From assembly GCA_036004665.1 (NCBI GenBank), contig DASYRG010000008.1, positions 10,240 to 74,239 of the forward strand: a stretch of 64,000 bases of DNA, given 5' to 3'. The position numbers were made by a program, and so were the translations under genes. Position 1 is the stretch's first letter; the number at the start of each line of letters is the position of its first letter. Source of the DNA: a bacterium. Its GTDB lineage: Bacteria > Sysuimicrobiota > Sysuimicrobiia > Sysuimicrobiales > Humicultoraceae. Shown one piece after another: positions 3,590-51,858 of the stretch. The notes under the pieces are model-generated. The model was not told the origin of the DNA. It saw only the letters and a list, made by a program, of their open reading frames with translations, and did not search any database.

Positions 3590-3658
3590 CCGGGGCGGGA
3601 CCGAACCGACCGGCGGCCCACGGCAAGGCACGGCGCAGGGTGATGCTACAATACCCGC

Positions 3659-4534
3659 GTGCCGGACACCTTGATGCGCGCCATTGCCGCCGACGGCGGC
3701 GTTCGTGGCGTGGCGGCCGTCGCCACCACGACCGTGGAGGAGGCGCGCCGCCGCCACGCCACCGCGCCCACCGCCACCGCTGCGCTGGGGCGGACCCTGA
3801 CGGCCACGGCGATGCTGGGGGCGGGATTGAAGGACGATCAGCGCATAACGCTTCGGGTGCTGGGCGATGGCCCGCTAGGAGGCATCATCGCGGACGGCAC
3901 CGGTGGGGGGGAGGTCCGCGGCTACGTCGCCAACCCAGATGTGGACCTGCCGGTGACCGCCCGCCGGAAACTGGACGTCGGAGGCGCCGTGGGGCGGGGC
4001 ACGCTCCACGTCACCAGAGACATGGGTCTCCGCTATCCCTATCACGGCAGTGTGCCGCTGATCTCCGGAGAGATCGGGGAGGACGTGGCCCGGTATCTGG
4101 TTGTGTCCGAACAGGTGCCGTCGGTGGTCGCTCTCGGCGTGCTGGTGAATCCCGACGGCGAGGTGCGCGCCGCGGGCGGGTACATCCTGCAGGTCCTCCC
4201 CGGAGCCGCCGATGACCTGCCGCGCTATCTGGAAGATCGGGTCAGATCGCTCCCCGCGGTGACAGATCTCGTGCGCGAGGGAATGGAGCCGCAGGCCATC
4301 CTGGATCTGGGCCTGGGAGAACTGGCTCCCCGCTCGCTCGGCGGCAGCCCGATCGCCTTCTCCTGCGGGTGTTCGCCAGCCCGTGTGGAGGCGGTCCTGA
4401 TCGCGCTGGGGAAGGATGAGGTGGAGCGCTTGATCGAGGAGCAGGGCCAGGCGGAAGTGACCTGCCGCTTCTGTGGCGACCGCTACGTGCTTGGGGCGGA
4501 GGAGCTGCGGGGGCTCTTCAGCGCGCCCGCGTGA
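3659..4534 (+). CDS. hslO: redox-regulated chaperone Hsp33
   Basis: Near-collinear with B. subtilis HslO from memory (TWPTASAALGRT, VRAYVSNP, SGELG, YLVSSEQVPS). The C-terminal zinc centre CGC...CRFCG is present. Confidence 0.9.
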   Translation: MPDTLMRAIAADGGVRGVAAVATTTVEEARRRHATAPTATAALGRTLTATAMLGAGLKDDQRITLRVLGDGPLGGIIADGTGGGEVRGYVANPDVDLPVTARRKLDVGGAVGRGTLHVTRDMGLRYPYHGSVPLISGEIGEDVARYLVVSEQVPSVVALGVLVNPDGEVRAAGGYILQVLPGAADDLPRYLEDRVRSLPAVTDLVREGMEPQAILDLGLGELAPRSLGGSPIAFSCGCSPARVEAVLIALGKDEVERLIEEQGQAEVTCRFCGDRYVLGAEELRGLFSAPA

Positions 4535-4709
4535 CCCGGCCGGAGCGGAGGCACGTCGTGCAGACGTGCACCCGCCGCACCCGGCCGCCGATGACACCTC
4601 TGATGCGCTGGACGTTGGCGCGGAATTGTCGCTTGCTGCGGATGTGAGAGTGGCTGAGCGAGTAGCCGGTCACCGTCCCCTTTCCGCAGATCTCACACTG
4701 TCGAGCCAT
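4518..4709 (-). CDS. rpmB: 50S ribosomal protein L28
   Basis: 63 aa, MARQCEICGKGTVTGYSLSHSHIRSKRQFRANVQRI... is a canonical L28. Confidence 0.9.
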   Translation of the reverse strand: MARQCEICGKGTVTGYSLSHSHIRSKRQFRANVQRIRGVIGGRVRRVHVCTTCLRSGRVTRAR

Positions 4710-4858
4710 TCCTTCTCTCCTCCCGCGCCGCGCGCGGCGCCGGAACCACCCGCGGCGGCCAAAACGTCAATCATGCTAACACGCGCCGGACGAGCCCGCA
4801 ACGGCGCGGTGTGCTCAGCGATGTGCTCAAAGGAAAGGCGACACACGCAGAGAAGAGG

Positions 4859-6979
4859 ATGCGCGGTTTGAGCGCGCGGTCCCAGACTCCTTCCGCTCCG
4901 CCCCGGCCGGCCGCGGGATCCCCTCTGCTCGCTCCGGTGCAGTACCTCAAGGGCGTCGGCCCCGCGCGTGCCGCCGCCCTCGCCCGGCTTGGCATCGCGA
5001 CGGTGGAAGACCTCCTCCTCCACGTGCCCCGACGGCTCGACGACCGCACCCGTCTCCTTCCACTGCGCGATCTGCCGCACGGCCAGGAGAGCACCGTCGA
5101 GGCGACGGTGGCCGCGGTGAGCGAGTTCCGCCCGCGGCGCGGCCTCACCGTGACCAAAGCGGCTCTGACCGACGGCAGCGGCATCGGGTATGCGATCTGG
5201 TACAACCAGTCCTATCTCAAAGCGCAGCTGCGGCGGGGGATGCGGGCGCTTTTCTTCGGGCGGGTGGAGCGGCGCTACGGGGAGATCCGCCTCACCGCGC
5301 CTGAGTTTGAAGAGATCGAGGACGCGGCGGAGGAAACCTGGCACACCGGGCGCCTGGTCCCCATCTATCCCTCCACGGAAGGCCTCTCCCAACGGATCCT
5401 CCGCAACCTGGTGCGCGGCGCCCTCGCCGCGCATGCCGGCGAGGTGGAGGAGATCCTTCCCGAGGAGCTGCGCCGGAGTCACCGGTTCAGCGGCGAGGCA
5501 GAGGCGCTGTGGGCGCTGCACTTCCCCGAGACCGTCGAGGCGCAGGTGCGTGCGCGGCAGCGCCTGGCCTTTGAGGAATTGCTCGTGCTCCAACTGGGAG
5601 TGCTGCTCCGCCGCCAGCAGGGGCGGGCCGCCGCCAAGCCCCAACGGTACAGGGCCGGTGGGCTGGCGGACCGCTTTCTCGCCTCCTTACCGTTTCCGCT
5701 GACGGGCGCGCAGCGGCGCGCCATCGGCGAGATCGCGGCCGACCTGGGCCATGCGCAGCCGATGAGCCGTCTGCTGCAGGGCGACGTGGGCTCGGGCAAG
5801 ACGGTGGTCGCCGTCGTCGCCCTCCTCACCTGCATCCAGGGCGGGTTTCAGGGTGCGCTGATGGCACCGACGGAGATTCTGGCGGAGCAGCACTACCTCA
5901 CGGTAGGACCGTGGCTCGACGGGCTGGGGGTGCAGGCGGCTCTGCTCACGGGCAGCCGCGGACGCGAGCGGGCGCAGCGGCGCGAGGCGGTGGCGGCCGG
6001 GGAGGCGGACCTTATCGTCGGCACGCACGCGCTGTTGGAGGAGGAGGTCGCGTTCGCCCGGCTCGGTCTGGTCATCGTCGACGAGCAGCACAAGTTCGGC
6101 GTCCTGCAGCGCGCACGACTGCGCCGCAAGGGCTTCGCGCCGGATGTCCTGGTCATGACCGCCACGCCCATCCCGCGCACGCTCGCGCTCACGCTGTACG
6201 GGGATCTGGACGTGACCACCCTGGACGAGGCGCCCCCCGGCCGCGGTCCCATCGCCACCCACTGGCGGCAGGCCTCGGCGCGTCCGAACGTGTACGCGTT
6301 CGTCCGCGAGCAGATCGCGGCCGGCCGGCAAGCGTACGTGGTGTGTCCCCTGATCGAGGATTCGGAAAAGTTGGCGGCCCGGGCGGCGGCGGCCCTCGCC
6401 GAGGAGCTGCGCGCCACCTTCTTCCCCGACCTCACCGTTGCGCTGCTGCACGGCCGGATGGCCAGCCCAGCGAAGGAGCGGACGATGGCGGCGCTGCGGG
6501 CAGGGGAGATCCACGTGCTGGTCGCCACCTCCGTCATCGAGGTGGGGATCGACGTCCCCAACGCGTCGGTGATGGTGATCGAGGACGCGGACCGCTTCGG
6601 GCTGGCGCAGCTGCATCAACTGCGGGGACGCGTCGGACGCGGGGCGCACCGCTCCTACTGCGTCCTCATCGCCTCCCCGTCGACCGAAGAGGGGCGCCGC
6701 CGGATGGAGGTGATGACCGCCACGACCGACGGCTTCCGGATCGCTCAGGAAGATCTGCTCCTGCGCGGCCCGGGGGAGATCCTGGGGACCCGGCAGCACG
6801 GGCTGCCGGACCTGCGCGTCGCCGATCTGAAGACGGACCTGGCGCTGTTGGAGGAGGCGCGCGCCGCCGCCGCGGAGATCCTGCGCGCGGATCCCGCCTT
6901 CGCAGACCACGCTCACCGTGGGCTTGGCGCGGCGGTGAAGCGCCGGTTTGCAGGGGCCAGCCTGACGCTGGTCAGCTAG
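4859..6979 (+). CDS. recG: ATP-dependent DNA helicase RecG
   Basis: Wedge domain followed by an SF2 helicase: GDVGSGKT Walker A, DEQHKFG Walker B, QLRGRVGRG motif VI. ATG 4859 is preceded by AGAAGAGG. An upstream alternative start at 4811 is possible. Confidence 0.9.
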   Translation: MRGLSARSQTPSAPPRPAAGSPLLAPVQYLKGVGPARAAALARLGIATVEDLLLHVPRRLDDRTRLLPLRDLPHGQESTVEATVAAVSEFRPRRGLTVTKAALTDGSGIGYAIWYNQSYLKAQLRRGMRALFFGRVERRYGEIRLTAPEFEEIEDAAEETWHTGRLVPIYPSTEGLSQRILRNLVRGALAAHAGEVEEILPEELRRSHRFSGEAEALWALHFPETVEAQVRARQRLAFEELLVLQLGVLLRRQQGRAAAKPQRYRAGGLADRFLASLPFPLTGAQRRAIGEIAADLGHAQPMSRLLQGDVGSGKTVVAVVALLTCIQGGFQGALMAPTEILAEQHYLTVGPWLDGLGVQAALLTGSRGRERAQRREAVAAGEADLIVGTHALLEEEVAFARLGLVIVDEQHKFGVLQRARLRRKGFAPDVLVMTATPIPRTLALTLYGDLDVTTLDEAPPGRGPIATHWRQASARPNVYAFVREQIAAGRQAYVVCPLIEDSEKLAARAAAALAEELRATFFPDLTVALLHGRMASPAKERTMAALRAGEIHVLVATSVIEVGIDVPNASVMVIEDADRFGLAQLHQLRGRVGRGAHRSYCVLIASPSTEEGRRRMEVMTATTDGFRIAQEDLLLRGPGEILGTRQHGLPDLRVADLKTDLALLEEARAAAAEILRADPAFADHAHRGLGAAVKRRFAGASLTLVS

Positions 6980-7525: not shown

Positions 7526-8025
7526 CCACGGCGCTCTATCCAGGAACTTTCGATCCCGCCCACCTCGGGCACCTCGATGTCATCGTGCGCGCCTCCCATC
7601 TCTTTGAGCGCCTCGTCGTGGCCGTCTCGCGGGAAGCGAAGAAGAACGGGCTGTTCTCCGTCGAGGAGCGCGCCGAGATGCTGCGCGAGGCTACCGCCGG
7701 GCTGCGCGGCGTCGAGGTGGTCGCCTACGGCGGGCTCACCGCGGTGTTCGCGCAGTCGGTGGGGGCGGAGGTCATCGTCAAGGGGCTGCGCGGCCCGGAG
7801 GACTTCGCCGCCGAGGCGCGCCAGATGCTGATGAACCGGCACCTCGGCGGCCCAGAGACGCTCTTCCTCCTGCCGTCGCCCCTGCACACGCAGGTGAGCT
7901 CCACCTTGATCCGGGAGGTGACCCGGTTGGGCGGCGACGCTTCCGCGTTTGTCCCCGAGGCGGTAGCGCGGCGGCTCACCGCCCCCGGCGGACGGGGACG
8001 CCGACGGACGGGGCGCGGGCCCTGA
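7522..8025 (+). CDS. coaD: phosphopantetheine adenylyltransferase
   Basis: ALYPGTFDPAHLGHLD (T/HxGH nucleotidyltransferase motif). The protein is about 167 aa. GTG 7522 overlaps the rsmD stop. Confidence 0.9.
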   Translation: MTTALYPGTFDPAHLGHLDVIVRASHLFERLVVAVSREAKKNGLFSVEERAEMLREATAGLRGVEVVAYGGLTAVFAQSVGAEVIVKGLRGPEDFAAEARQMLMNRHLGGPETLFLLPSPLHTQVSSTLIREVTRLGGDASAFVPEAVARRLTAPGGRGRRRTGRGP

Positions 8026-8471
8026 TGGAATCCGTCATCGCGCTGTTGGACCGGTTGGAGGGTCTCCTCGCCCGGGGCCGCGGAGGGGGTGAGCGGCGAG
8101 GGCCGGAGACGGCGGAGGCGCTCGGCGTCCTGCGCATGATCCGCGCTGCGCTCCCCGCCGAACTCCATCACGCCCAGCGGCTTCGGGAGGAGGCAGAGAC
8201 GCTCCACCGCCGCGCCGCGGACGAGGCCCGGCGCATGATTCTGGACGCGGAGGCACTGGTGCGGCGGCAGTACGAGGAGGGGCCAGCGCAGTCCGAGCTC
8301 GCCTTGCGGCGCAGCCAGATGGTCGAAGACGCGCGGGCGGAGGCCGAACAGATCCGCCGCGGTGCGGACGACTACGCGGCCGGCGTGCTCGCCGATCTCG
8401 AGGCGCACGTCGGCAGAATTCTGGGGGCGATCCAACGCGGCAGGACACTGCTGGGATCGGATGGACGGTAG
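8025..8471 (+). CDS. hypothetical coiled-coil protein (occupies the ylbM-like position)
   Basis: 148 aa, Ala/Arg/Glu-rich with predicted coiled-coil character. ATG overlaps the coaD stop (TGATG). No recognisable motif. Confidence 0.45.
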   Translation: MESVIALLDRLEGLLARGRGGGERRGPETAEALGVLRMIRAALPAELHHAQRLREEAETLHRRAADEARRMILDAEALVRRQYEEGPAQSELALRRSQMVEDARAEAEQIRRGADDYAAGVLADLEAHVGRILGAIQRGRTLLGSDGR

Positions 8472-8480
8472 ACAGTGAGA

Positions 8481-8510
8481 TTGTGACCGGGGTCTCTGGG
8501 TCAGTATAAT
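8481..8510 (+). promoter_or_regulatory. sigma-A-type promoter (TTGTGA-18-TATAAT) ahead of yceD-rpmF-plsX-fab operon
   Basis: TTGTGA at 8481-8486 and a perfect TATAAT at 8505-8510, in the gap between the hypothetical gene and the DUF177 gene. Confidence 0.4.
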
Positions 8511-8543
8511 GACAGGAGTTTGTCGCGGGGGATCTGATCCGGC

Positions 8544-9062
8544 GTGATCGTTGATCTGGACCAGCTCGATCTGGATGACCGCGGGGGGACGTCGCTCCCG
8601 TTCACGGAGGTGATTGAGAGCGGCGCGGAGGTGCCGTTCTCGCGGCCGGCGGAAGGGCGCATGCGCTTCATGCGCGCCGGCGACGTCACCTGGGTCCGCG
8701 GCGAGGTCGGCACCGAGGTGACGCTGCTCTGTGCGCGGTGCGCGCGACCCTTTGAGCACCGCCTGGTGGGGACCTTTCGCGAGGGGTACCGGGCGGGCGG
8801 GGCAGAGAATGAGGAGAACGAGGAGGAGGGCAGCGGAGCCCCTGTCATCGTGACGCTGGCCGCCTCCCTCCTCGACGTCACCGAGGTGGTCCGCCAGCAC
8901 CTCATCTTGGCGGTGCCGATGGCGCCGCTGTGCCGGCGGGACTGTCGGGGATTGTGCCCGAGGTGCGGGGCAGATCGCAATGAGGGCGACTGCAACTGCC
9001 CCGCCGACGCGGTGGACCCGCGCCTGGAAGTGCTGCGCGGCTTTCGCCCCGCCGCAGAGTAG
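8544..9062 (+). CDS. YceD/DUF177 family protein (large-subunit rRNA accumulation protein)
   Basis: C-terminal CxxC...CxxC cluster (CRRDCRGLCPRCG...CNC) and the conserved position immediately upstream of rpmF. The GTG start is the first one after an in-frame stop; there is no clear Shine-Dalgarno. Confidence 0.75.
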   Translation: MIVDLDQLDLDDRGGTSLPFTEVIESGAEVPFSRPAEGRMRFMRAGDVTWVRGEVGTEVTLLCARCARPFEHRLVGTFREGYRAGGAENEENEEEGSGAPVIVTLAASLLDVTEVVRQHLILAVPMAPLCRRDCRGLCPRCGADRNEGDCNCPADAVDPRLEVLRGFRPAAE

Positions 9063-9096
9063 TTCGCGCGCGGCGCCATATAGAGGAGGAGAGGCG

Positions 9097-9285
9097 TTGG
9101 GAATTCAGAAGCGGAGGCACTCCCGAGCCCGGACGGCCCGGCGGCGCAGCCAGTGGAAGGCGGCGCCGGTGACGCTGGTGGGCTGTCCGCAGTGCCACCA
9201 GCCCATGCGCCCCCACCGGGTGTGTCCCACCTGCGGCTACTACGCCGGCCGGCGGGTCATCGAGCGTGAGGAAACCAGCACATAG
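9097..9285 (+). CDS. rpmF: 50S ribosomal protein L32
   Basis: TTG 9097 has GGAGGAG 6 nt upstream. (M)GIQKRRHSRARTARRRSQWK...CPQCHQPMRPHRVCPTCGYY is canonical L32 with its zinc ribbon. Confidence 0.85.
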   Translation: MGIQKRRHSRARTARRRSQWKAAPVTLVGCPQCHQPMRPHRVCPTCGYYAGRRVIEREETST

Positions 9286-9329
9286 ACGGCAGAGGATGCG
9301 CGCCTGATCCGGGGAGTCGGTCGGTCCCG

Positions 9330-10406
9330 ATGAAGGTGCGGGTCGCCGTGGATGCCATGGGCGGGGACTACGCGCCCGACGAGGTGGTCGGCGGCGCCGC
9401 CGCCGCCGCCGCGGCCCTCGGCGTCGAGATTACGCTTGTCGGTCCGGCCGAGCGGATCCACCGGGCCCTCGGCGGACGAACCCGCGGCCTCTCCATCGAG
9501 GTCGTCGACGCCCCAGAGGTCATCGGCATGGACGAGGCCCCGGCAATGGCGGTGCGCCGAAAACGCCGCTCCTCGGTGGTTGTCGCGCTGCAGCAGGTAC
9601 GGGACGGTCGGGCCTCCGCCGTCGTGACCGCCGGCAACACCGGGGCGGCCATGGGCGCCGCGCTCCTCACGCTCGGCCGCATCCCCGCGGTGGACCGTCC
9701 GGCGATCGCCGCCATCCTGCCCACCCTCGGCAAGACTCCCGCCATTCTCCTCGACGTCGGGGCCAACGTGGACTGCAAACCCAAGCACCTCCTCCAGTTC
9801 GGGGTGATGGGGGCGGTCTACGCCCACCGCGTCCTCGGCATCGCCTCCCCGCGCGTCGGCATCCTCAGCAACGGGGAGGAGGCCAGCAAGGGCAATGACC
9901 TGACCATCCGCGCCGCGGATCTGCTGCGCGCCTCCGGGCTCAATTTCGTGGGCAACGTGGAGGGGCGGGACTTCTTCTCCGGGCAGACTGACGTGATCGT
10001 CTGCGACGGGTTCGTCGGCAACATCGTGCTCAAGTTCGGAGAGGGACTGGCGCTCTCGCTGCGCCAGATCCTCCGCGACGAGTTGCGCGGCACCCCCGGA
10101 GTCCTGCTCAAGTTGTATCTGGCGCCGCTGAAACGGCGGGGGCTTCGCATCTGGCGCCGGCTCGACTACCGCGAGTACGGCGGCGCCCCGCTGCTGGGGG
10201 TGAACGGCGTCTGTATCATCGCCCACGGGCGCAGCAACGCCTGGGCGATCCGCAACGCCATCCGCGTCGCCGCGGAAGCCGCGCAGCGGCAGATCGTCCA
10301 GCCCATCAGCGACGAGATGGCCGCCATCGAGTCACGCCTCTCCACCGCCGCCGTAGCCGGCGAGCCGCCGCTGGGTGGCCCCGGCGTCGTGGGAGCAGAG
10401 AGTTGA
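9330..10406 (+). CDS. plsX: phosphate acyltransferase PlsX
   Basis: MKVRVAVDAMGGDYAP...NTGA...GFVGNIVLK match the PlsX family. Confidence 0.9.
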   Translation: MKVRVAVDAMGGDYAPDEVVGGAAAAAAALGVEITLVGPAERIHRALGGRTRGLSIEVVDAPEVIGMDEAPAMAVRRKRRSSVVVALQQVRDGRASAVVTAGNTGAAMGAALLTLGRIPAVDRPAIAAILPTLGKTPAILLDVGANVDCKPKHLLQFGVMGAVYAHRVLGIASPRVGILSNGEEASKGNDLTIRAADLLRASGLNFVGNVEGRDFFSGQTDVIVCDGFVGNIVLKFGEGLALSLRQILRDELRGTPGVLLKLYLAPLKRRGLRIWRRLDYREYGGAPLLGVNGVCIIAHGRSNAWAIRNAIRVAAEAAQRQIVQPISDEMAAIESRLSTAAVAGEPPLGGPGVVGAES

Positions 10407-39152: not shown

Positions 39153-42100
39153 GTGCGCGGCTGGCTCTTCGACGTCTATCCCTCGGGAGAGGGGATGACA
39201 CTGTGGTTTCTGGACGAGGACGGCCACCCCCACCCGCTGCGCACGGAGTACCATCCGGCCTTCTACGCTGCGGGCCCCGCCGCGGCGGTGGAGCGCCTCT
39301 CCCGTGACCTGACTCGCCGGCGCATCGCTGCCGACCTCACGCCGGTCGTCCGGCAGGAACTGTTCAGCGGCGCCGAGCTGCCGGTGATGCGCGTGGCAGT
39401 CCACCGGCCGCTGCTCTTTCCCACTGCGGTCGGGTGCGCCGCGGCGATTCCGGCCCTTACCCTCTATACCTGCGACCTCAGCGCGGCGCAACTCTTCCTC
39501 TATGAGAGCGGGTTCTTTCCGCTGGGCCGGTACGAGGTCGCGGCGGCCGACGGCGTCCTGCGCGAGGCCACACCGCTGACCCACCCCGAAGACATGGAGT
39601 ACGAACCCCCGCCGCTCCTGGTGATGCGGATGCGCCTCGACGGCGACCCGGTCAACCCCAACCACGGGTGGCGTGGGGAGCTGGAGGTGGCGGTGCCGGG
39701 GGAGCACGTCGTCCTCAGCGGAGAGTACCCTGAGGATCTCTGTCGCAGCCTCAACCGCCTGCTCGCCCGCTATGACCCCGACGTCCTGCTGACCGACTGG
39801 GGGGATCCCTTTCTCATCCCCCGGCTCCTGCGGCTGAGCGCGCTGGCGGGCGTCCCCCTCGCCTTCAACCGCGACCCGCGCGCCGGCATCGGCGTGCGCC
39901 GGGGCCGTTCCTACGTCACGTACGGCAAGACAGTCTACCAGGCGGGGGCGCACATCCTGGCTGGCCGCTGGCACCTCGACCTGCGCAATTCCTTCATCTA
40001 TACGGAGTCGGAGATGGCCGGGCTGCTGGAGATCGCCCGACTGGCCCGCCTGCCGGTGCAGCGCCTGGCCCGCACCTCCACGGGCACCGCCATCTCCTCG
40101 ATGCAGCTCGCGCGGGCCGTGCAGACCGGCATCCTCGTGCCCTGGCACAAGAGCGAGCCGGAGGGGTTTAAGACCGCGGCGGAGTTGCTGATCACCGACA
40201 AGGGGGGGTTGACCTACCAGCCGCTGGTGGGCGTCTACGAGGGAGTGGGGGAGCTCGACTTCTCCTCCATGTACCCGACCATCATGGCCCGCTTCAACGT
40301 CTCGCCGGAAACGATCAACTGTTCTTGTTGCGCGATTGCCGAGCCCGTGCCGGAGATCGGCCACGCCATCTGCCAGCGCCGACGTGGCCTGGTCCCGCAG
40401 GTGCTGGATCACTTGCTGGTGCGGCGCGAGTATTACAAGCGGCGCAAGCGGGAGACGGAGGGCGCGCCGCGCGCCGTATACGACCAACGGCAGACGGCGC
40501 TGAAATGGTGTCTCGTTACCTGCCTTACAGGGGAAACGCTCGTACTACATCGCCGGGACGGTCGCTGGAAAGTAGCGCCTATCGGGGAAATCGTTGATTC
40601 GTATCTTCCCGGCGAGCAGTGGGGAACTCAAGCAGTCACAGAACTAACGGTGGGCGGAATTGATTCGGAACTTCGAGTCTGTGCTAAGCCTGTGAAACTG
40701 GTGATGAAGGCGCTAGCTCCCGCGAAGATGCTTCGGGTCAAGATGCGGTGGGGACGGGAATTGCTAGTGACGCCCAACCATCGATGCTACGTTCTCCATG
40801 GCGGTCGGCTTCGAGTAGTGCGCGCCGATGAGTTGCATGTGGGTGATTGGGTTCCTTTGGTAGGGTCGCTGGAAGGCCTTCTTGGGCAACTCGACTCAAA
40901 GATCGATGTCATACGTGCCTTGCAGCAGAGTCTTTCTGCGGAAGATCAGGACCGCTGGCGAGTATTTGGGAGACCAGTGCAAAGAGTTGTCAGAGAGCGC
41001 TATAGAGAGTTCGCAGCCCGGGCCAGAGACAAGTACGCTGCGAAAACGATCTGGAACTGGCGGGAGTACGGTTATTTGCCGCTTTCCTTCGTTCAACCGG
41101 AGGACTTCAGGATCGAAGAGCGGCCCGAGATCCGCCTGGGGCGGGGCAAGTTGTCCGGAGGAGTAATCAGACAGACCCCGTCTGTCGTGGACGTGGATGA
41201 GGACCTGGGGTTTCTCCTTGGTTTCTTCGTGGGAGATGGAAGTGCGACTGGAACGATGATTCGCTTCGATGTTGGGGCGAACGAAAGAGAACACCTGCCG
41301 AGGTTGCGACACATCTTGCTTCGGAAGTTTCGCATCAACGCGCGTGTCTATCGTGAGCGAAGGGCAAGAATGTACGTCCTGCAGGCAAACAGTGTGGCTC
41401 TTGTCGAGGTGTTCAAGCATGCGTGCGGAGTGGCAGGATCGGCGCGAACGGGCAAACTGCGTATCCCCGATGTTATTCTGAACGGCCCGCGCGATGCTCA
41501 GAGGGGCTTTGTCCTGGGGTTAATAGCCAGCGATGGAAATGTCAGCCGAGTTCGGGATTTTGTCAGCATAGCGAGTGCCAGTCGGTCCTTTATAAAAGAA
41601 CTCGGGTTTCTGTTCTCCTTGCTGGGTGTGGATTACCGACTGGGCTTCCATGGACGTCTGCACAGCATTCAGACGCGCAACATGGGCGAAACTCGGAAGA
41701 TTCTGTATGAGGGCGCCCCTGTTTCTCGAAAGCATCTCAGGGCGTTACGCTATCGCGAGTCAGTAACCCCGGTCCCGCGACTTCCGCAGATACCGGTGCA
41801 TCCCAGTGGGATATATGAGTTCAGCCGTGCAGTCCGGGTGACACGAGCGCCTCGGGTGTCCAGTCTCGAAATGATTTCTCAAGCGACGGCGCATGTGAAG
41901 TTGAACCAGGTGGTTCAGCGAAGCGGACGTCTTGGTGAGGAGCTTCGAGGCCGGCTGCCTGATTTCAGGCGGCTACTTGAATCGCCCATGATTTTCGCGC
42001 CCGTGATTTCAATCGAGGAGACGCTCTCGCCAGGGCAGTTTGTGTACTGTTTTCAGCTCAAGGATGAGCCACACGCATTTGTTGTTGAAGGAAATGTGTT

Positions 42101-42983
42101 GACCTCCAACAGTTTTGGCTACCTCGGGTACCGTAACGCCCGCTACGGTCGCATCGAAGCGCACGAGTCGACGACTGCCTATTCGCGCGAGATGCTGCTG
42201 CGCGCGAAGGAAGTTGCTGAGGCGCAAGGCTACCGCATGCTGCACGCCATCGTGGATTCCATGTGGCTGCAGAAGCCGGGAGCGGACCATCACGCGTACG
42301 AGACGCTGGCCCGCGACATCAAGCGCGTCACCAACCTCCCGGTCGCCGTCGAGGGCGTCTACGGCTGGGTCTCCTTTCTTCCTTCTAAAACACATCCCGG
42401 TGTGGGCGTGCCGAACCGCTACCTGGGGGTCTTCCAGGACGGTGAGACGAAAGTGCGTGGGATCGAAGTCCGGCGCTCGGACACCCCTGTGCTCATTGAG
42501 GAGATGCAGGCGCGAATGCTGCAGGAGATGTTTGCCGCGCCCACGATCGAAGCGTTGATCGTCCGCCTCCCCCGGATACTGGCCGTCCTGGAAGAGACGC
42601 TGGTGCGGCTGCGCGAGGGCTCAGTTCGTCCAGGCGAGCTGGCCCTGACGACCACGATCTCGCAAGAGGTCTCGGAGTACCGCAGCAACCACCCCGTCGC
42701 CGTGGCGGCGCGGGCCCTGGCCGCTGCCGGCATCCACCTCCATCCGGGGGAGGCGATTCAGTACGTCATCACGGATGCCGACGCCAAACTGGTGGACGAG
42801 CGGGTGCGGCCGCTGGCGCTGCTGGGGGCCGACTGGGTCTACGATCTGGAACGGTACGCCGAACTCCTCCTCCGCGCCGCCGAGACGGTGCTTGAGCCGT
42901 TCGGGTACACGGCAGATCGCCTCAGGGAGGAAGTCTGGCGGCCCCTGAGTGAGCGGAACGGAGGAGCGATGAGCGGACGATGA
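39153..42983 (+). CDS. archaeal-type family B DNA polymerase with degenerate exonuclease motifs, interrupted by an intein in motif B
   Basis: N-terminus WLFDVYPSGEGMTLWFLDEDGHP...HPAFYAA resembles the archaeal PolB N-domain. Motif A is LDFSSMYPTIM. After intein removal, motif B reads KWCLVT|SFGYLGYRNARYG. Motif-C region is LHAIVDSMW (IVDS in place of DTDS). Exo I (MRMRLDG) and Exo II (GDPFL) have lost their acidic residues. Confidence 0.85.
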   Translation: MRGWLFDVYPSGEGMTLWFLDEDGHPHPLRTEYHPAFYAAGPAAAVERLSRDLTRRRIAADLTPVVRQELFSGAELPVMRVAVHRPLLFPTAVGCAAAIPALTLYTCDLSAAQLFLYESGFFPLGRYEVAAADGVLREATPLTHPEDMEYEPPPLLVMRMRLDGDPVNPNHGWRGELEVAVPGEHVVLSGEYPEDLCRSLNRLLARYDPDVLLTDWGDPFLIPRLLRLSALAGVPLAFNRDPRAGIGVRRGRSYVTYGKTVYQAGAHILAGRWHLDLRNSFIYTESEMAGLLEIARLARLPVQRLARTSTGTAISSMQLARAVQTGILVPWHKSEPEGFKTAAELLITDKGGLTYQPLVGVYEGVGELDFSSMYPTIMARFNVSPETINCSCCAIAEPVPEIGHAICQRRRGLVPQVLDHLLVRREYYKRRKRETEGAPRAVYDQRQTALKWCLVTCLTGETLVLHRRDGRWKVAPIGEIVDSYLPGEQWGTQAVTELTVGGIDSELRVCAKPVKLVMKALAPAKMLRVKMRWGRELLVTPNHRCYVLHGGRLRVVRADELHVGDWVPLVGSLEGLLGQLDSKIDVIRALQQSLSAEDQDRWRVFGRPVQRVVRERYREFAARARDKYAAKTIWNWREYGYLPLSFVQPEDFRIEERPEIRLGRGKLSGGVIRQTPSVVDVDEDLGFLLGFFVGDGSATGTMIRFDVGANEREHLPRLRHILLRKFRINARVYRERRARMYVLQANSVALVEVFKHACGVAGSARTGKLRIPDVILNGPRDAQRGFVLGLIASDGNVSRVRDFVSIASASRSFIKELGFLFSLLGVDYRLGFHGRLHSIQTRNMGETRKILYEGAPVSRKHLRALRYRESVTPVPRLPQIPVHPSGIYEFSRAVRVTRAPRVSSLEMISQATAHVKLNQVVQRSGRLGEELRGRLPDFRRLLESPMIFAPVISIEETLSPGQFVYCFQLKDEPHAFVVEGNVLTSNSFGYLGYRNARYGRIEAHESTTAYSREMLLRAKEVAEAQGYRMLHAIVDSMWLQKPGADHHAYETLARDIKRVTNLPVAVEGVYGWVSFLPSKTHPGVGVPNRYLGVFQDGETKVRGIEVRRSDTPVLIEEMQARMLQEMFAAPTIEALIVRLPRILAVLEETLVRLREGSVRPGELALTTTISQEVSEYRSNHPVAVAARALAAAGIHLHPGEAIQYVITDADAKLVDERVRPLALLGADWVYDLERYAELLLRAAETVLEPFGYTADRLREEVWRPLSERNGGAMSGR
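40521..42110 (+). mobile_element. intein (530 aa) with LAGLIDADG homing-endonuclease domain, inserted at the pol-b site of PolB
   Basis: Begins CLTGETLVL (Cys1) after extein ...KWCLVT and ends ...VVEGNVLTSN followed by Ser+1. Two LAGLIDADG motifs (LGFLLGFFVGDGSA and GFVLGLIASDGNVS). Visibly lower GC than the flanking extein. Confidence 0.8.
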
Positions 42984-45558: not shown

Positions 45559-46902
45559 ATGTCCCGAACCACCTGGAGACTCCTCTTCGTTGTCGTCGTG
45601 GCGCTGCTGGCGGCCCAGCTGGCCACGGCGCCGCTCGGATTCGAGGGGTACCGTCCGCGGCTGCAGGCCCCCCGGCTGCGGGTGAACCTCGGCCTCGACC
45701 TCCAGGGCGGCAGCCACCTCGTCCTGGAAGCGCAGGATACCGCAACCGTCAAGGCCACGCCCGAAGCGGTCGAGGCGGCGATGCGCGTGATCGAGAGCCG
45801 TATCGATCAGCTGGGGGTAGTGGAACCGACGATCCAGCGCGTGGGCGACCGACGGATCATCGTTGAGCTCCCGGGGATCGAAGACCCCGAGCGCGCCCTC
45901 CGGCTGATCGGCAAAACCGCCCTCCTGGAGTTCACCAACACCGGCCGGACCCAACTGCCTGAGGGATCCCGCTGGAACCCCCAGGGAACGGCTGTGACAA
46001 TTCCGGGGCCGCAGACGCGCACGATCAACCTGAAGAAAGACGTGATCCTCACCGGCGCCGATTTGGCGGAAGCGCAGGCGGGGTTCCAGCAGGGCAGCGG
46101 GGTGACGACCGGCACGCCGATTGTGAGTTTTCGGTTCAAGGGGCCGGCGGGGAAGAAGTTCGAGGAGTTCACCGCCAGCCACGTCGGCCAGTACCTCACG
46201 ATCGTGCTGGACAACGAGGTGATTTCCTCTCCTGTGATCCAGGAGAAGATCGGTGGGGGGTCGGGCCAGATCAGCGGTGGCTTCCGCGACATCGCGGAGG
46301 CCCGCGAACTCGCCGTCTTGCTGCGCGCCGGCTCGCTGCCGATTCCCGTCGAGGTGGTCGAGCGCCGCACGGTCGGGCCGTCCCTGGGCCGCGACTCCCT
46401 CGACCTCAGCCTGCGCGCAGGCGCCATCGCGGTGGCGCTCATCGTCGCCTTCATGATCGCGCTCTATCGCCTGCCCGGCGTGCTGGCGGACGCGGCCCTG
46501 CTCCTCTATGCGCTCTTTCTCTTTGCCGCCCTGACCGCCCTCGGGGCCACGATGACCCTGCCGGGGATCGCCGCCTTCATCATCTCGGTGGGCATGGCCA
46601 TCGACGCCAACGTGCTCATCTTCGAGCGGATCAAGGAGGAACTGCGCGCCGGCAAGACGCTGCGCGCGGGCATCCAGTCGGGGTGGAGCCGCGCCTGGTC
46701 GGCCATCCTGGACTCCAACGTCACCACGCTGGTCGGCGCCGCGGTGCTCTTCGCCCTGGGGACCGGTCCGATCAAAGGCTTCGCCACGACGCTCTTCATC
46801 GGGGTCGTGATCAGCATGTTCACGGCGATCCTGGTCACGCGGGTGCTCGTCGACTCCGTGGCCCGCCCGCCCATCGACCGCTTCTTGCGGTTCGGCGCGT
46901 AG
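45559..46902 (+). CDS. secD: protein translocase subunit SecD
   Basis: N-terminal TM helix, periplasmic domain (VNLGLDLQGGSHLVLEA, RIIVELPGIEDPERA), C-terminal 6-TM bundle. GGAGAA Shine-Dalgarno upstream. Confidence 0.9.
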   Translation: MSRTTWRLLFVVVVALLAAQLATAPLGFEGYRPRLQAPRLRVNLGLDLQGGSHLVLEAQDTATVKATPEAVEAAMRVIESRIDQLGVVEPTIQRVGDRRIIVELPGIEDPERALRLIGKTALLEFTNTGRTQLPEGSRWNPQGTAVTIPGPQTRTINLKKDVILTGADLAEAQAGFQQGSGVTTGTPIVSFRFKGPAGKKFEEFTASHVGQYLTIVLDNEVISSPVIQEKIGGGSGQISGGFRDIAEARELAVLLRAGSLPIPVEVVERRTVGPSLGRDSLDLSLRAGAIAVALIVAFMIALYRLPGVLADAALLLYALFLFAALTALGATMTLPGIAAFIISVGMAIDANVLIFERIKEELRAGKTLRAGIQSGWSRAWSAILDSNVTTLVGAAVLFALGTGPIKGFATTLFIGVVISMFTAILVTRVLVDSVARPPIDRFLRFGA

Positions 46903-47907
46903 ATGGCCATGCGCACCTGGGACATCATCGGCAACCGGCGCTGGGGCTACCTCCTCTCGCTGCTGGTCATCATCCCCGGAGCGATCGCCCTGGCCGTCTG
47001 GAGCATCAACCTGGGGATCGACTTCACCGGCGGGACGCTGCTGGATCTACGCCTCGGCCGGGAGGCCAGCCTCCAGGAGGTCCGGGCGGTCCTCGAGCCC
47101 TTCGGCCATGGCGACGCGGTCATCCAGCAGTCGCCGGAACGTCCGCGCCAGGTCCTCATCCGGACGCGGCTGATCGAGGAAGCCGACATGACCCGCCTGC
47201 AGAAGGCCTTCGGCGACCGCTTTAGCGGGGTGGAGGTCCTGCGCGCGGAGCGGGTGGGACCGAAGATCGGCCAGGAACTGCGGGCCCGCGCCATCCAGGC
47301 CGTCGTGATCGGCCTGCTGCTGCAGGTCCTCTACATCTCCTGGCGCTTCCGCTCGTTCCGCTTCGCTATCGCCGCCGACATCGCGCTGATCCACGACCTC
47401 TTGATCGTCGTGGGCATCTACTCGCTGCTGCGCAAGGAGGTCGACTCGTCGTTCGTCGCGGTGCTGCTGACGGTGGTGGGCTATTCGATCAACGATACGG
47501 TGGTCATCCTCGACCGCATCCGTGAGGAACAGAACCTGCGCAGCCGGGAGCCCTTTCCCCGCCTGGTCAACCGATCCATCCTCGAAGTGTTGGTGCGCTC
47601 GCTCACGACCGGGTTCGGGGCGATCATCGCCCTGCTGATCATCTACTTCTTCGGGGGTCCGACGATCAAGGACTTCGTCCTCGGGCTGGGAATCGGCGTC
47701 ATCACCGGAACGTACTCGTCCATCTTCATCGCCAGCCCCGTATTGGTGGAGTGGCACAACTGGAGCGAGCGGCGGCGGGGAAAACCCCAGGCGCCGGCCG
47801 AAGCGGAAGGCCGCCCGGTGCCTGAACTGGCTGCGGTGGGCGGTCCCGACGGGCGAAAGGCGCCTACGCCCGTCCCGCGCCGGCGGCGCAGTCGGAGACG
47901 GAGGTAG
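46903..47907 (+). CDS. secF: protein translocase subunit SecF
   Basis: GIDFTGGT...IHDLLIVVGIYSLL...GYSINDTVVILDRIRE match SecF. ATG immediately follows the secD stop. Confidence 0.9.
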   Translation: MAMRTWDIIGNRRWGYLLSLLVIIPGAIALAVWSINLGIDFTGGTLLDLRLGREASLQEVRAVLEPFGHGDAVIQQSPERPRQVLIRTRLIEEADMTRLQKAFGDRFSGVEVLRAERVGPKIGQELRARAIQAVVIGLLLQVLYISWRFRSFRFAIAADIALIHDLLIVVGIYSLLRKEVDSSFVAVLLTVVGYSINDTVVILDRIREEQNLRSREPFPRLVNRSILEVLVRSLTTGFGAIIALLIIYFFGGPTIKDFVLGLGIGVITGTYSSIFIASPVLVEWHNWSERRRGKPQAPAEAEGRPVPELAAVGGPDGRKAPTPVPRRRRSRRRR

Positions 47908-47917
47908 AATTACCACG

Positions 47918-48205
47918 ATGCGTGTGCTGCTGCTTCTGGCCCTCGTGTTGCTGGCGGCGGTGACCATTTTTGCACTCAATAACCCCACCGCCGTGACCGT
48001 CCGATTTCTGGCCTGGAGATACGGCACCACCCTCGCCCTCGCCATGATCGCGGCGGCGGCCGCCGGGGCGCTGGTCGTCTACATCGCCAGCCTGGCGGCG
48101 CAGCAGGGATTGAAGGCCCGCCTGAGGGCGGCCCAATCCCGTCTGGCCGAACTCGAACGGCAGCGCACCGCGCTTCCCCCCCAGAGCCCTTCATCCGGCG
48201 CCTGA
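47918..48205 (+). CDS. LapA/YciS-like small inner-membrane protein
   Basis: 95 aa with two TM helices (LLLLALVLLAAVTIFALNN...; TLALAMIAAAAAGALVVYIA) and a C-terminal coiled-coil tail, typical of the LapA (DUF1049) family. Confidence 0.6.
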   Translation: MRVLLLLALVLLAAVTIFALNNPTAVTVRFLAWRYGTTLALAMIAAAAAGALVVYIASLAAQQGLKARLRAAQSRLAELERQRTALPPQSPSSGA

Positions 48206-48250: not shown

Positions 48251-48259
48251 TGGTATAAT
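48251..48259 (+). promoter_or_regulatory. extended -10 element TGGTATAAT upstream of recJ
   Basis: TGgTATAAT lies 33 nt upstream of the recJ GTG start. No LexA box nearby. Confidence 0.3.
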
Positions 48260-48291: not shown

Positions 48292-51200
48292 GTGACGCTC
48301 CTTCCACCCGCCCGCTGGATCATCAAGCCTCCCGATCCCGAGCGCGCCGCCGCCCTCGCGGCGGACCTGTCGATCAGCCCTCTTACCGCCCAAATGCTGC
48401 TGAACCGAGGGCTGGCTGATCCCGCCGCCGCCCGCGTCTTCCTGCGGGCCGCCCTGGAGGATCTCAGTGAGCCCGCCCACCTGCTCGACCTTCCCCGGGC
48501 GGCGGAGGTGCTGCTGGCCGCGCTGGGAGGCGGGACGCGGATCATCATCTACGGCGACTATGACGCCGATGGCGTCACCTCCACGGCGATCCTGGTGCGG
48601 GGACTGCGCGCCCTGGGCGCCCGGCCGGAGGTCTTCATCCCGCGCCGGGACATGGAGGGGTACGGTCTCAACGGCGACGCCATCGCCCGCCTGGGAGGTC
48701 CGGGGTTGCTCGTCGCCGTGGACTGCGGGATCACGGCGGTGGACGAGGTCGCCCAGGCGGCCGCGCAGGGACTGCAGGTCATCATCCTCGATCACCACCT
48801 TCCCGGCTCAGCGCTGCCCCCTGCGGCGGCCGTCGTCGGACCGAAACGAGAAGGGCAGCCTGCGGTCACCCCCGTCGCGGCGTGCGGGCTCGCCTATCAA
48901 ACTGTCCGCGCGCTCTGGCGGCTGGCCGGGCGGGATGATCAGCCGGTCGACCTGCTGGATCTCGTCGCGGTCGGAACGCTGGCCGACGTCGTCCCCCTCG
49001 TCGGGGACAACCGGATCTTCGCCCGGCAGGGGCTGGCCAGGATGGCCGAGGCGCCGTCGGTAGGGATCGCGGCGCTGCTGCGCGTGGCCGACGTCGCGGG
49101 CGCGGTGCGGATCCGCGATGTCACCTTTGGACTGGCGCCGCGGCTGAACGCCGCCGGCCGTCTCGGCGACGCCACGGTGGCGGTGACGCTGCTGACCACC
49201 GACGATCCCGCCGAAGCCGCCGCGCTCGCCCGGACGCTCGACGAAGAGAACCGGAGACGTCAGGAGATCACGGAGGCGGTGCTCGCGTCCGCGTCCGCGC
49301 AGGTGGAGGAGGCTGGGTGGAAGGACGGGCCCGCCCTGGTGGTGGCTGGAGAGGGCTGGCACGCCGGGGTGATTGGCATCGTCGCCTCTCACCTCAAGGA
49401 GCGCTACAATCGTCCCGTCGTGATGATCGCCGTCGCGGACGGCGTCGGGCGGGGATCTGCCCGGTCCATTGAACCGCTGCCCATGGTGGACGCCCTCGGC
49501 GCGGTCGGCGACCTGCTCAGCCGCTTCGGCGGCCACGCCATGGCCGCGGGGCTGACGATCGCCGCGGAACGCATCGAAGACTTTCGCCGCCGCTTCACCC
49601 AGGAGGCGGGGCGCCGGCTCACTCCCGAGGATCTCGCGCCGGCCCTGACCATCGACGCGGAAGTGGACCTGCCCGCCCTCATCCCAGCGCTGGCGAGGGA
49701 GATCGAACAGATGGCGCCCTTCGGTCCCGGCAACCCCGAACCGCTGGTGGTCCTGCGCGGCCTGCGCGCCGCGGCGACGCGCGTCGTAGGCGACGGCCAC
49801 CTGCGAGTGGGCCTCACCGACGGGCGCGCGTTCGTCGACGCCATCGGATTCGCCCGCGGCGACGTCGCCGAACTGCTGGCGTTCACCGGCGCGAGGGTGG
49901 ACGTCGCCGCGGCCGTCGAGCTCGACCGGTGGGGGGAGGGAGAGCGGGTCTCGCTGGTGCTGCGCGATCTGAGCACGCCCGGATTGGATCTGGAAGCGGT
50001 GCTGGCGGACGGGGATCTGCTGCTGGACCGTCTCTTCGCGCGCGCGCAGGAGTATCTGGGGACGGGCTTCCGCGGCATCGAAGGCGCGTGGTCCTTTTAC
50101 ACAAAGGTCGCCGGTGTGACCTTCGAGGGACGGCAGGAGTGGCTGTCCTCGATCCGTCCGGGACAACCGCTGCATCTGGTCCGGCAGCCCTCGAATCCCT
50201 ACGATCCCCACGCCATCGCCATCCTGACCACCGAAGGGCGCCAGCTCGGCTTCCTCAGCGCCAGGATCGCGGGACGGCTGGCGCCTTCCATTGATGCGGG
50301 AACGCGCTACATGGCGACCGCCTCGCAACTGACTGGGGGCGGAGACCGTTCCTATGGGTTGAACGTCTTCATCCAGCGGGAGGAGTCCGCGGTCAGCGCG
50401 GACGGGATGGCCTGGTCCTCCTGGCGCCCCCTGCCGGTGGATGCCCTATTGGAGCGGCTGCGCATCCTCCTGCATGGGGGGCGGCCCCTCCGCCACGCGC
50501 AGTCGGAGACGATCGAACGGCTGCTCATCGAGGGGAAGGTAACGACAGCCTTGAGGCCGGGACGCCGCGGGGCGGTGACCGCGATGATGGCGGCTGCGGC
50601 CCTGGCGGCGCAGCGCGCGCGTCCCGTCGTGATTGCTCTCTCGCTGATCAGCCAGGTGGACCGCTGGTTCGAGACCTTCGGGCCGCTGCTGCGCGAGGTC
50701 GGCTTTCGCGTCTACCGCGCCCACGGCGCGCTCTCGCTGCGCCCCCAACAGCGGCTGGCCCGCGCGCTGGAGGAAGGGCGCGCCGATATCGTCTTGGCCA
50801 GCGCGGCGTGGCTCGCGCGGGGCGGGGTGGAGACGGTGCCGCACGGGCTGCGCTCGGCCGTGATCATCGCCGACGCCGACATGCCGGGCGAGACCGCCGG
50901 TGTTCTGGCGGCTGCCGTCTCCCCGCACCTCCCGCCTGGCGGGGGCCTGGCTCGCTTCCAGTGGAAGAGTGGTGCGTCTCACTCTGACGCGGCCGGTGAT
51001 CCGGATGGAGTCGGGGTCGTTCAGGACGGCTTCGTCAGGGCGAACCTGCGCCTGGTCGACCGGCGTGATGACGCAGACCATGAGAGCCTGCTGGCGGCGC
51101 TGGCCGCCCCCGATGAAAAGACGCTGATCTTCACACCACGCCGCGGCGACGCCGTCACGCTGGCGACGTCGCTGCGCGGCCGGGAGGGAATGGGCGCGGT

Positions 51201-51858
51201 GGCCTATTACCATGGCGGCCTCCCAGCCAGGGTGCGCCGGGTGATCGAGCAACTCTTCCTGGACGGCAAGGTCGGCGTGCTGGTCTCGACGGGCGCCTTT
51301 CCAGAAGCCTTCGCCCCCGGCGACATCGCCCAAGTCATCCTGGGCGGCCTTCCCCAGAGCCGCACGCAGTTGCAGGAGATGGCCGCGCTCGCCGGACTCT
51401 CCGGGAAGCCGGCGACCGTCGTCCTGGCCTATCGCCGCGACGATGCGGCCCGCGTCCTCGCGGACGTCGAAGAACGCTTCCCGTCGCGGGACCGACTGGC
51501 CGCCTTCTACCGACTGCTCCGTACGGTTGTTCAGGCGAGCGGAGGGGAGGCGCTGCTCTGGCCCGGTGAAGCCTTGGGATCGGCGCTGGCCGGCGCTGGA
51601 TGGTCTGCTCAGGGCAGCGAGAGCGCCCTCGATACGCTGGCACAGGCCGGTGTGATTCAGCGTGAGATCCTCGAGGGCCGCTGGCGCATTGAACTGACGG
51701 ACGGTGGCCGGCGGGACCTGACCGATTCCCTGCGCTATGTCGAAGGCGACCGCGAGCGGGGGGCAGTAGACGGGCTCATGCCCATGGCCTTTGGCCCGGC
51801 CTCTGCGATCCTGCACGGGCTGGCGAGCGCCGACGCGAGAGAAACCACCTCCACCTGA
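48292..51858 (+). CDS. recJ: RecJ single-strand DNA exonuclease fused to a HIRAN domain and a catalytically degenerate RecQ-like helicase module
   Basis: aa 1-560: DHH family (IIIYGDYDADGVTST, LDHHLP, DHHA1 GGHAMAAGL). Roughly aa 590-700: HIRAN (VAGVTFEGRQ...PSNPYDPHAIAI...GRQLGFLSARIAGRL). Roughly aa 720-1188: colinear with RecQ helicase lobes but with GGGKS changed to GRRGA and QETGRAGRDG changed to QEMAALAGLSG. Confidence 0.85.
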   Translation: MTLLPPARWIIKPPDPERAAALAADLSISPLTAQMLLNRGLADPAAARVFLRAALEDLSEPAHLLDLPRAAEVLLAALGGGTRIIIYGDYDADGVTSTAILVRGLRALGARPEVFIPRRDMEGYGLNGDAIARLGGPGLLVAVDCGITAVDEVAQAAAQGLQVIILDHHLPGSALPPAAAVVGPKREGQPAVTPVAACGLAYQTVRALWRLAGRDDQPVDLLDLVAVGTLADVVPLVGDNRIFARQGLARMAEAPSVGIAALLRVADVAGAVRIRDVTFGLAPRLNAAGRLGDATVAVTLLTTDDPAEAAALARTLDEENRRRQEITEAVLASASAQVEEAGWKDGPALVVAGEGWHAGVIGIVASHLKERYNRPVVMIAVADGVGRGSARSIEPLPMVDALGAVGDLLSRFGGHAMAAGLTIAAERIEDFRRRFTQEAGRRLTPEDLAPALTIDAEVDLPALIPALAREIEQMAPFGPGNPEPLVVLRGLRAAATRVVGDGHLRVGLTDGRAFVDAIGFARGDVAELLAFTGARVDVAAAVELDRWGEGERVSLVLRDLSTPGLDLEAVLADGDLLLDRLFARAQEYLGTGFRGIEGAWSFYTKVAGVTFEGRQEWLSSIRPGQPLHLVRQPSNPYDPHAIAILTTEGRQLGFLSARIAGRLAPSIDAGTRYMATASQLTGGGDRSYGLNVFIQREESAVSADGMAWSSWRPLPVDALLERLRILLHGGRPLRHAQSETIERLLIEGKVTTALRPGRRGAVTAMMAAAALAAQRARPVVIALSLISQVDRWFETFGPLLREVGFRVYRAHGALSLRPQQRLARALEEGRADIVLASAAWLARGGVETVPHGLRSAVIIADADMPGETAGVLAAAVSPHLPPGGGLARFQWKSGASHSDAAGDPDGVGVVQDGFVRANLRLVDRRDDADHESLLAALAAPDEKTLIFTPRRGDAVTLATSLRGREGMGAVAYYHGGLPARVRRVIEQLFLDGKVGVLVSTGAFPEAFAPGDIAQVILGGLPQSRTQLQEMAALAGLSGKPATVVLAYRRDDAARVLADVEERFPSRDRLAAFYRLLRTVVQASGGEALLWPGEALGSALAGAGWSAQGSESALDTLAQAGVIQREILEGRWRIELTDGGRRDLTDSLRYVEGDRERGAVDGLMPMAFGPASAILHGLASADARETTST

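Follow-up and report, generated by a model that had tools for sequence, protein, structure and literature searches.

The stretch of DNA analysed here (the window; 64,000 nucleotides of contig DASYRG010000008.1 in GenBank assembly GCA_036004665.1, from a Sysuimicrobiota bacterium) carries a gene in which the exonuclease RecJ is fused to a HIRAN domain and a degenerate RecQ-like helicase. The gene occupies 48292..51858 on the forward strand as one open reading frame (ORF) with a GTG start that encodes 1188 amino acids (aa), exactly the coordinates and length given in a preliminary description of the locus. An identical 1188-aa product was called independently on a Logan contig. The whole gene and its parts are as follows.

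48292..51858, forward strand: whole gene, RecJ–HIRAN–degenerate RecQ-like helicase fusion (1188 aa; stop codon included)
48538..48978, forward strand: DHH catalytic domain, aa 83–229 (Pfam and motif table)
49330..49605, forward strand: DHHA1 domain, aa 347–438, GGH motif intact (Pfam and motif table)
49651..49968, forward strand: RecJ OB-fold domain, aa 454–559 (Pfam; Foldseek match to D. radiodurans RecJ 5f56, E = 3e-34)
49984..50091, forward strand: helical linker, aa 565–600 (alignment and models)
50092..50382, forward strand: HIRAN domain, aa 601–697, with NPYD at aa 635–638
50437..51006, forward strand: degenerate helicase N-lobe, aa 716–905; motif 0 Q kept; motifs I, Ia, Ib, II and III lost
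51016..51432, forward strand: degenerate helicase C-lobe, aa 909–1047; AYYHGGLP kept; motifs IV, V and VI lost (Pfam Helicase_C)
51436..51825, forward strand: tail, aa 1049–1178, free of cysteines; the model shows a helical hairpin, then a winged-helix-like unit and two helices at the C-terminus

The N-terminal half has the signatures of a complete RecJ. Pfam assigns DHH to aa 83–229 (5e-23), DHHA1 to aa 347–438 (2.6e-17) and RecJ_OB to aa 454–559 (1.4e-20), and the NCBIfam recJ equivalog TIGR00644 matches over profile positions 2–545 of 546 with 478.7 bits (cutoff 396.9). The DHH motifs are intact (DxDxDG at aa 89–94, D144, DHH at aa 167–169 and D232), and DYDADG, VDCG, DHH, ADVVPL and GGHAMAAG are present in the window protein and in every orthologue. 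Among RecJ structures the full-length model is matched best by 5f56/5f55 (Foldseek E = 3e-34, ~570 columns, 37% identity), and it also matches S. aureus 8y30 and T. thermophilus 2zxo RecJ, with 30–38% identity overall. By its motifs the protein is a RecJ family member with an intact catalytic set and a predicted 5'-3' single-stranded DNA (ssDNA) exonuclease activity. It has the DHH-DHHA1-OB core and all the catalytic motifs of the bacterial RecJ proteins (5f56, 2zxo and 8y30; 30–38% identity), but differs from them in having ~600 extra residues, HIRAN and two RecA-like lobes, between the OB fold and the tail.

The first of the additional domains matches Pfam HIRAN (PF08797) at aa 601–675 with 50.4 bits against a gathering threshold of 24.7 (E = 2e-13), and the HIRAN β-barrel is present in the AlphaFold model of aa 580–1188. 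The DHH/DHHA1 nuclease followed by HIRAN, as proposed in the preliminary description, is borne out by Pfam (DHH, DHHA1, RecJ_OB and HIRAN) and, for RecJ, by the TIGR00644 score. The NPYD motif aligns with N-P-Y93-D94 of HLTF, in which Y72 and Y93 stack on the 3' dinucleotide (PMC4666394). The domain is a bona fide HIRAN, predicted from this correspondence to bind 3'-OH ends. The helical linker preceding it is also kept before HIRAN in free-standing helicases of Eremiobacterota. In HLTF and Rad5, HIRAN likewise lies N-terminal to a two-lobe superfamily 2 (SF2) module, and the NPYD pocket motif is common to them and the window protein (PMC4666394). HLTF differs in that its motor is Snf2-type and active and is accompanied by a RING domain and no nuclease, whereas the lobes of the window protein are RecQ-like, dead and joined to RecJ.

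Beyond HIRAN, Pfam detects Helicase_C at aa 937–1027 (7.4e-9; 36.3 bits against a cutoff of 23.5), and single-sequence searches with this C-lobe return weak matches to RecQ4, RecQ, RECQL5, BLM and DEAD-box proteins. The N-terminal helicase lobe is undetected by single-sequence hidden Markov model (HMM) searches with Pfam and by PDB searches of that region, so its identity needed further evidence. A homologue search with aa 580–1188 recovered P0011, a free-standing 650-aa protein with HIRAN, DEAD and Helicase_C domains that aligns to the query end to end (98% coverage, 30% identity, E = 3e-55) and has canonical motifs (GTGRGKS, VVDEAHH, LTATA and QQSGRAGRDG). AlphaFold models aa 580–1188 (mean predicted local distance difference test score 83; predicted template modelling score (pTM) 0.79) as a HIRAN barrel, two RecA-like lobes and the tail, and the top ~48 Foldseek matches to the helicase-like model are all RecQ-family cores, over 370–530 aligned columns. 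Homology of the N-lobe is supported by the P0011 alignment, by the predicted fold and by its RecQ-family matches. Profile and fold searches accordingly uphold both HIRAN and a RecQ-like fold. Of the roughly 470 aa that had been assigned to the two RecQ lobes, the lobes take up about aa 716–1047, and the remainder is the 130-aa, putatively winged-helix tail (aa 1049–1178).

The helicase module is related to RecQ without belonging to it. Against the RecQ family profiles (TIGR00614/TIGR01389) the window protein scores 29.3 bits, below the cutoff of 219.8; relatives with active motifs score 169–189 bits, also below it, RecQ nonetheless being their best-scoring family. The Cys4 zinc-binding subdomain of RecQ is absent, with zero cysteines in aa 1051–1188, and HRDC, which is optional in the RecQ family, gives no Pfam match at E ≤ 1. 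The active relatives likewise have neither the zinc-binding nor the HRDC part. RecQ membership failed on five tested features, and the module is a RecQ-like pseudo-helicase.

RecJ and RecQ are the textbook nuclease–helicase pair of the bacterial RecF pathway, known as separate proteins. The idea that the window gene hard-wires this partnership holds for the fusion itself, which is best shown by relatives with an active helicase; the partner has to be called 'RecQ-like' rather than 'RecQ', as it falls below the family cutoff and has no zinc-binding or HRDC part. The E. coli RecF-pathway proteins show the same pairing of a 5'-3' ssDNA exonuclease with a RecQ-like SF2 helicase, which is intact in the active fused relatives. 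They differ from the window protein in being separate, whereas here one polypeptide contains an ATPase-dead helicase and an added HIRAN domain.

To define the loss of the motor, a set of 24 active fusions was set against a dead set, 19 proteins from the window's clade, at positions conserved in at least 90% of the active set. In the dead set all such positions are changed or unconserved throughout motifs I (T, K, S), Ia, Ib (TPEF), II (E, H, H), III (TAT), IV, V (T.AFGEG) and VI (Q, R, R, D). In the same comparison HIRAN has 18 shared conserved positions and none lost, and RecJ has 60 shared and six lost. Judged from these positions, the loss of motor motifs in the window's clade is specific and complete. 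Three remnants can be located in the motif table.

50545..50589, forward strand: motif I remnant, aa 752–766, TALRPGRRGAVTAMM; GTGRGKS in active relatives
50857..50892, forward strand: motif II remnant, aa 856–867, AVIIADADMPGE; VVDEAHH followed by an aromatic-rich loop in active relatives
51370..51423, forward strand: motif VI remnant, aa 1027–1044, LQEMAALAGLSGKPATVV; QQSGRAGRDG in active relatives

The Walker A consensus GxGK[ST] has become PGRRGAV in the window protein, Gly and Ala replacing the Lys and the Ser/Thr, and Walker A is lost in all 19 clade members. DEAH has become DADM, leaving no acidic DE pair, and is followed by a 9-column gap at the aromatic-rich loop (MAFFT alignment); the arginine-finger motif VI, QxxGRxGR, has become QEMAALAGL. 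Together with the lost TAT, these changes confirm residue by residue that the ATPase and arginine-finger motifs are mutated, as first described. Might nucleotide still be bound or hydrolysed through non-canonical residues, making the protein an active if unusual helicase–nuclease? An Arg at the Walker A Lys position in some clade members (GPGRGRR) and GRDGR in motif VI of one member would fit, but with motifs I, II, III, V and VI lost together, the aromatic-rich loop gapped, and neither the Walker A residues nor the DE pair present in the window protein, we consider this highly improbable. The member in question, from Ca. Fervidifonticultor tertius (L022), keeps motif VI as GIAGRDGR though motifs I and II are gone. 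Elsewhere in the clade, two near-identical fragments (P0004 and P0007) have no motif V segment where P0009 has one, which suggests that the dead C-lobe has internal deletions, arising at the level of strain or of assembly.

The tail is plausibly a winged-helix unit, as judged from the model. Searched as a profile against the whole PDB, it best matches the C-terminal domain of S. aureus RecJ (8y30_A residues 652–733; E = 0.0024), with weak matches to winged-helix proteins next, and 4 of 13 tails match Pfam PF10141 ('ssDNA-exonuc_C'; best E 8e-7). The C-terminal domain of Firmicutes RecJ (PF10141) may therefore share ancestry with this helicase module or be what is left of it.

A scan of species-representative genomes with a four-sequence profile found 20 loci in metagenome-assembled genomes (MAGs) named as Armatimonadetes bacterium CSP1-3, 'Bacillati bacterium ANGP1', Armatimonadota, Ca. 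Thermofontivivens and Ca. Fervidifonticultor; the genus Fervidifonticultor is listed among Sysuimicrobiota (CSP1-3) MAGs (PMC11604079). At 13 of the 20 the gene is a complete single open frame of 1160–1230 aa, and at least 13 independent genomes of the CSP1-3 (Sysuimicrobiota)/ANGP1 lineage, at 35–70% identity, carry it unbroken between secDF-lapA and relA. The window protein groups with P0133–P0137 and loci L004–L023, with a collinear, end-to-end match to the family profile over an ORF of ~1200 aa. A frame kept whole in at least 13 genomes means that the locus is not a frameshifted pair of genes, a question that this survey of related genomes settles in favour of a true fusion.

Selection on the separate parts was measured as the ratio of non-synonymous to synonymous substitution rates (dN/dS; Nei–Gojobori) in close orthologue pairs. 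The ratios are 0.11–0.21 for RecJ, 0.08–0.22 for HIRAN, 0.11–0.22 for the tail and 0.08–0.24 for the dead C-lobe. Purifying selection thus acts on the dead helicase module, though in moderately relaxed form on its N-lobe. Progressive loss in related lineages, with HIRAN undetected or only the C-lobe left, might suggest that the C-terminal half is a functionless relic in decay, and recJ is divided into two ORFs on one contig, as it would be if the long ORF were an assembly or frameshift artefact. Either is very unlikely, given the unbroken frame in at least 13 independent genomes at 35–70% identity, dN/dS of 0.08–0.30, a confidently folded model and the identical protein on an independent contig. 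The contig with the divided gene (P0008; JGI 3300043331) has a 233-aa DHH ORF and a 934-aa DHHA1-OB-HIRAN-dead-helicase ORF (genes 3049–3750 and 3766–6570), a division that is either real or due to a frameshift or sequencing error.

A first, word-indexed homologue search had returned 13 proteins and made the family appear extremely rare, a picture overturned by an exhaustive HMMER search of 1.84 billion representatives, in which classes were assigned with domain HMMs and motif tests. Of the top 150 representatives (50% identity), 148 were newly retrieved, and the class counts refer to these. The commonest class is RecJ-HIRAN-active helicase-tail (43 of 148), and a further 24 have RecJ, active helicase and tail with HIRAN undetected. 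The window's own class, RecJ-HIRAN-dead helicase, accounts for ~16; ~41 (835–1095 aa) have RecJ with a dead two-lobe or C-lobe-only remnant and no detected HIRAN, and ~8 are HIRAN-active helicases without RecJ. Pfam gives DHH-DHHA1-OB-HIRAN-DEAD-Helicase_C in two Peptococcaceae MAGs and one rumen MAG. By source name, active fused forms come from Bacillota and Clostridia MAGs and from Slackia (HIRAN undetected in the latter), and dead forms with HIRAN occur in cultured Fuchsiella alkaliacetigena and Natroniella sp. C-lobe remnants are found in Pelosinus fermentans (P0253) and Desulfofundulus kuznetsovii (P0255): these two, P0240 and ~30 other representatives, including cultured Bacillota, are 'RecJ' proteins of 835–960 aa with a vestigial SF2 C-lobe after the OB fold, and their C-terminal profile matches DEAD-box, RecQ and WRN C-lobes with E of 2e-12 to 1e-9.

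Every named family member that contains RecJ is annotated 'single-stranded-DNA-specific exonuclease RecJ'. In Eremiobacterota the recJ slot, immediately behind secDF and upstream of apt-relA, is taken by a HIRAN-active helicase. One such free-standing HIRAN plus active RecQ-like helicase (~650 aa), a form abundant in Eremiobacterota, is found at 8001–9974 of a metagenome contig (L003). These HIRAN-helicases are labelled 'single-stranded-DNA-specific exonuclease' by JGI despite having no RecJ domains; a RecJ relic was looked for upstream of the Eremiobacterota HIRAN-helicase and none was detectable. An apparent match of the string FGKAGTAAG to the GGH motif is probably an alignment accident. 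Full-text literature searches, in a collection with few subscription titles, gave no description of the RecJ-HIRAN-helicase architecture. The RecJ-helicase fusions apparently form a widespread and undescribed family.

In a rough neighbour-joining tree of the RecJ core the window's class forms one clade, and the other dead or remnant forms are scattered among active ones. This suggests one inactivation in the window's clade and repeated independent decay elsewhere. The dead form of the window would, provisionally, be the derived state of one clade: it would most likely descend from a RecJ-HIRAN-RecQ-like fusion whose motor was active, of the kind that remains common in Bacillota, and the motor would have been lost once, the fold then being retained under purifying selection. 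In the active form the motor would open the duplex in the 3'-5' direction, and the 5' strand so displaced would pass to RecJ. A broader scenario, which we offer only tentatively, is that a single-chain RecJ-HIRAN-RecQ-like 'resectosome' was ancestral in much of Terrabacteria and was pared down stepwise, with the motor dead but kept (CSP1-3 and Halanaerobiales), HIRAN lost, the N-lobe lost and finally the winged-helix tail alone remaining. PF10141 (S. aureus RecJ residues 652–733) would then be the last vestige of the helicase, and the dead lobes of CSP1-3 would have been repurposed for passive recognition of the 3' strand or fork, in the manner of RecC and AddB.

RecC of RecBCD and AddB of AddAB are helicase folds without motor motifs that are kept in end-resection machines, where they bind and scan ssDNA. 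By analogy they are, in terms of function, the best precedent for a dead helicase that is still of use, though they are SF1-derived and belong to multi-subunit machines with an active motor elsewhere, whereas the window protein is SF2/RecQ-like and has no active motor in its chain. The gene is probably the housekeeping recJ of a CSP1-3 (Sysuimicrobiota)/ANGP1 bacterium, encoding a competent 5'-3' ssDNA exonuclease that, together with a HIRAN 3'-end binder, ATPase-dead RecQ-like lobes and a winged-helix tail, acts as a structure-targeted nuclease without ATP-driven unwinding. HIRAN would capture a free 3'-OH, as offered by a gap, by a duplex end that frays or by the nascent leading strand where a fork has stalled or reversed, and passive binding of the adjoining DNA would fall to the dead lobes and winged helix. 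Jointly the three would hold RecJ in place, its active site tethered on the complementary 5' strand. DNA ends or stalled forks, reached through HIRAN and the non-motor helicase scaffold, are most likely the target of the exonuclease. A DNA-binding or scaffolding role for the dead helicase, as first proposed, is plausible and consistent with the purifying selection.

Several points weigh against this account. One is polarity: RecJ needs a 5' tail and HIRAN binds 3' ends. The aromatic residue equivalent to HLTF Y93 varies within the window's clade (Y, H, R or A), the D being invariant. The dead N-lobe evolves faster than the other parts, with dN/dS of 0.24–0.30 in close pairs and higher values in distant ones, and part of it may be a mere spacer. 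DNA binding by the dead lobes, where we assume it, is by analogy, and the substrate preference is one that we infer. The packing of RecJ, HIRAN and lobes is not interpreted because the full-length AlphaFold model has a pTM of 0.56 and comes without predicted aligned errors, and both the single inactivation and the ancestral fusion are provisional because the neighbour-joining tree carries no support values.

The dead module could instead serve mainly as a protein–protein platform, for SSB, RecA, RecOR, the replisome or another helicase, leaving DNA targeting to HIRAN alone. Residues that active and dead forms alike conserve are mostly in the C-lobe and tail, and the DNA-contacting motifs Ia, Ib, IV and V are lost; moreover, the tail is common to the window protein and the S. 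aureus RecJ C-terminal domain, and the C-terminal domain of D. radiodurans RecJ binds the SSB C-terminus, according to the title of PDB entry 5f56. We nevertheless regard a mainly platform role as unlikely, as no partner was identified, no neighbouring gene is conserved beyond secDF, lapA and relA, and the tail resembles DNA-binding winged helix-turn-helix domains.

Nuclease and helicase are combined in other ways elsewhere. WRN and S. aureus DinG likewise join a nuclease and an SF2 helicase in one chain, but their nucleases are DnaQ-type 3'-5' exonucleases and their helicases are active. The RecJ fold associates recurrently with helicases at forks in archaea and eukaryotes, as GAN-CMG, HAN-Hef and Cdc45 (PMC5717133); there the partners are not covalently joined, and the dead member in the case of Cdc45 is the RecJ fold, not the helicase. 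The RecJ-RecQ partnership gains independent support from evolution in the natural RecJ-helicase fusion of many Bacillota and related phyla, which also provides a bacterial HIRAN domain whose repair context is clear. The interest of the window protein comes mainly from its membership in this widespread, unrecognised family as a conserved, naturally motor-dead state: its lineage is a natural experiment in which the motor was removed and the fold kept under selection across a phylum-level clade. This opens the questions of what a helicase fold contributes besides ATP-driven unwinding and what HIRAN does beside a 5'-3' nuclease, and the family suggests a possible origin for the uncharacterised RecJ C-terminal domain (PF10141) of well-studied Firmicutes.

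The gene lies in a conserved setting, the housekeeping order secDF-lapA-recJ-relA being common to the window and its relatives.

45559..47907, forward strand: secD and secF, upstream; synteny conserved
47918..48205, forward strand: small LapA-domain membrane protein between secF and recJ
48251..48259, forward strand: candidate extended -10 promoter element TGGTATAAT, a perfect match 33 nucleotides upstream of the recJ start codon
51936..54164, forward strand: relA/spoT, downstream; synteny conserved

Comparison of the relatives' contigs showed no other conserved neighbour of the recJ fusion. This setting bears on whether the protein belongs to an anti-phage defence or mobile system, in which RecQ-like helicases (DpdF and PsyrT) and HIRAN domains do occur. 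PADLOC gives weak matches to DpdF, PsyrT and PDC-M03B models, but these reflect generic RecQ-like and HIRAN similarity, and the housekeeping secDF-recJ-relA slot is conserved in every genome examined; with the RecJ equivalog score, no second recJ seen in the window and vertical conservation across a phylum-level clade, a defence role is extremely unlikely, and we rejected it on context.

No second recJ was seen and no recQ was found within the 64-kb window. A weak tblastn match to the E. coli RecQ C-lobe at 6431–6703 (E = 0.005, 23% identity) is probably another SF2 helicase gene, not RecQ. P0013, considered as a separate RecQ of the window's lineage, belongs to Planctomycetota.

The 9-mer TGGTATAAT recurs ahead of two orthologous genes, those of L005 and L018, at -32 and -36. 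No -35 hexamer is present near it and a two-hexamer promoter scan was empty, so that the candidate extended -10 element stands isolated; the host genome has 70% GC. Elsewhere in the window, a 1262-aa family-B DNA polymerase ORF at 39194–42982 on the forward strand is interrupted by intein and LAGLIDADG homing-endonuclease signatures, and the window's sole marked dip in GC content (0.59 at 40001–42000, against ~0.70 elsewhere) coincides with this ORF.

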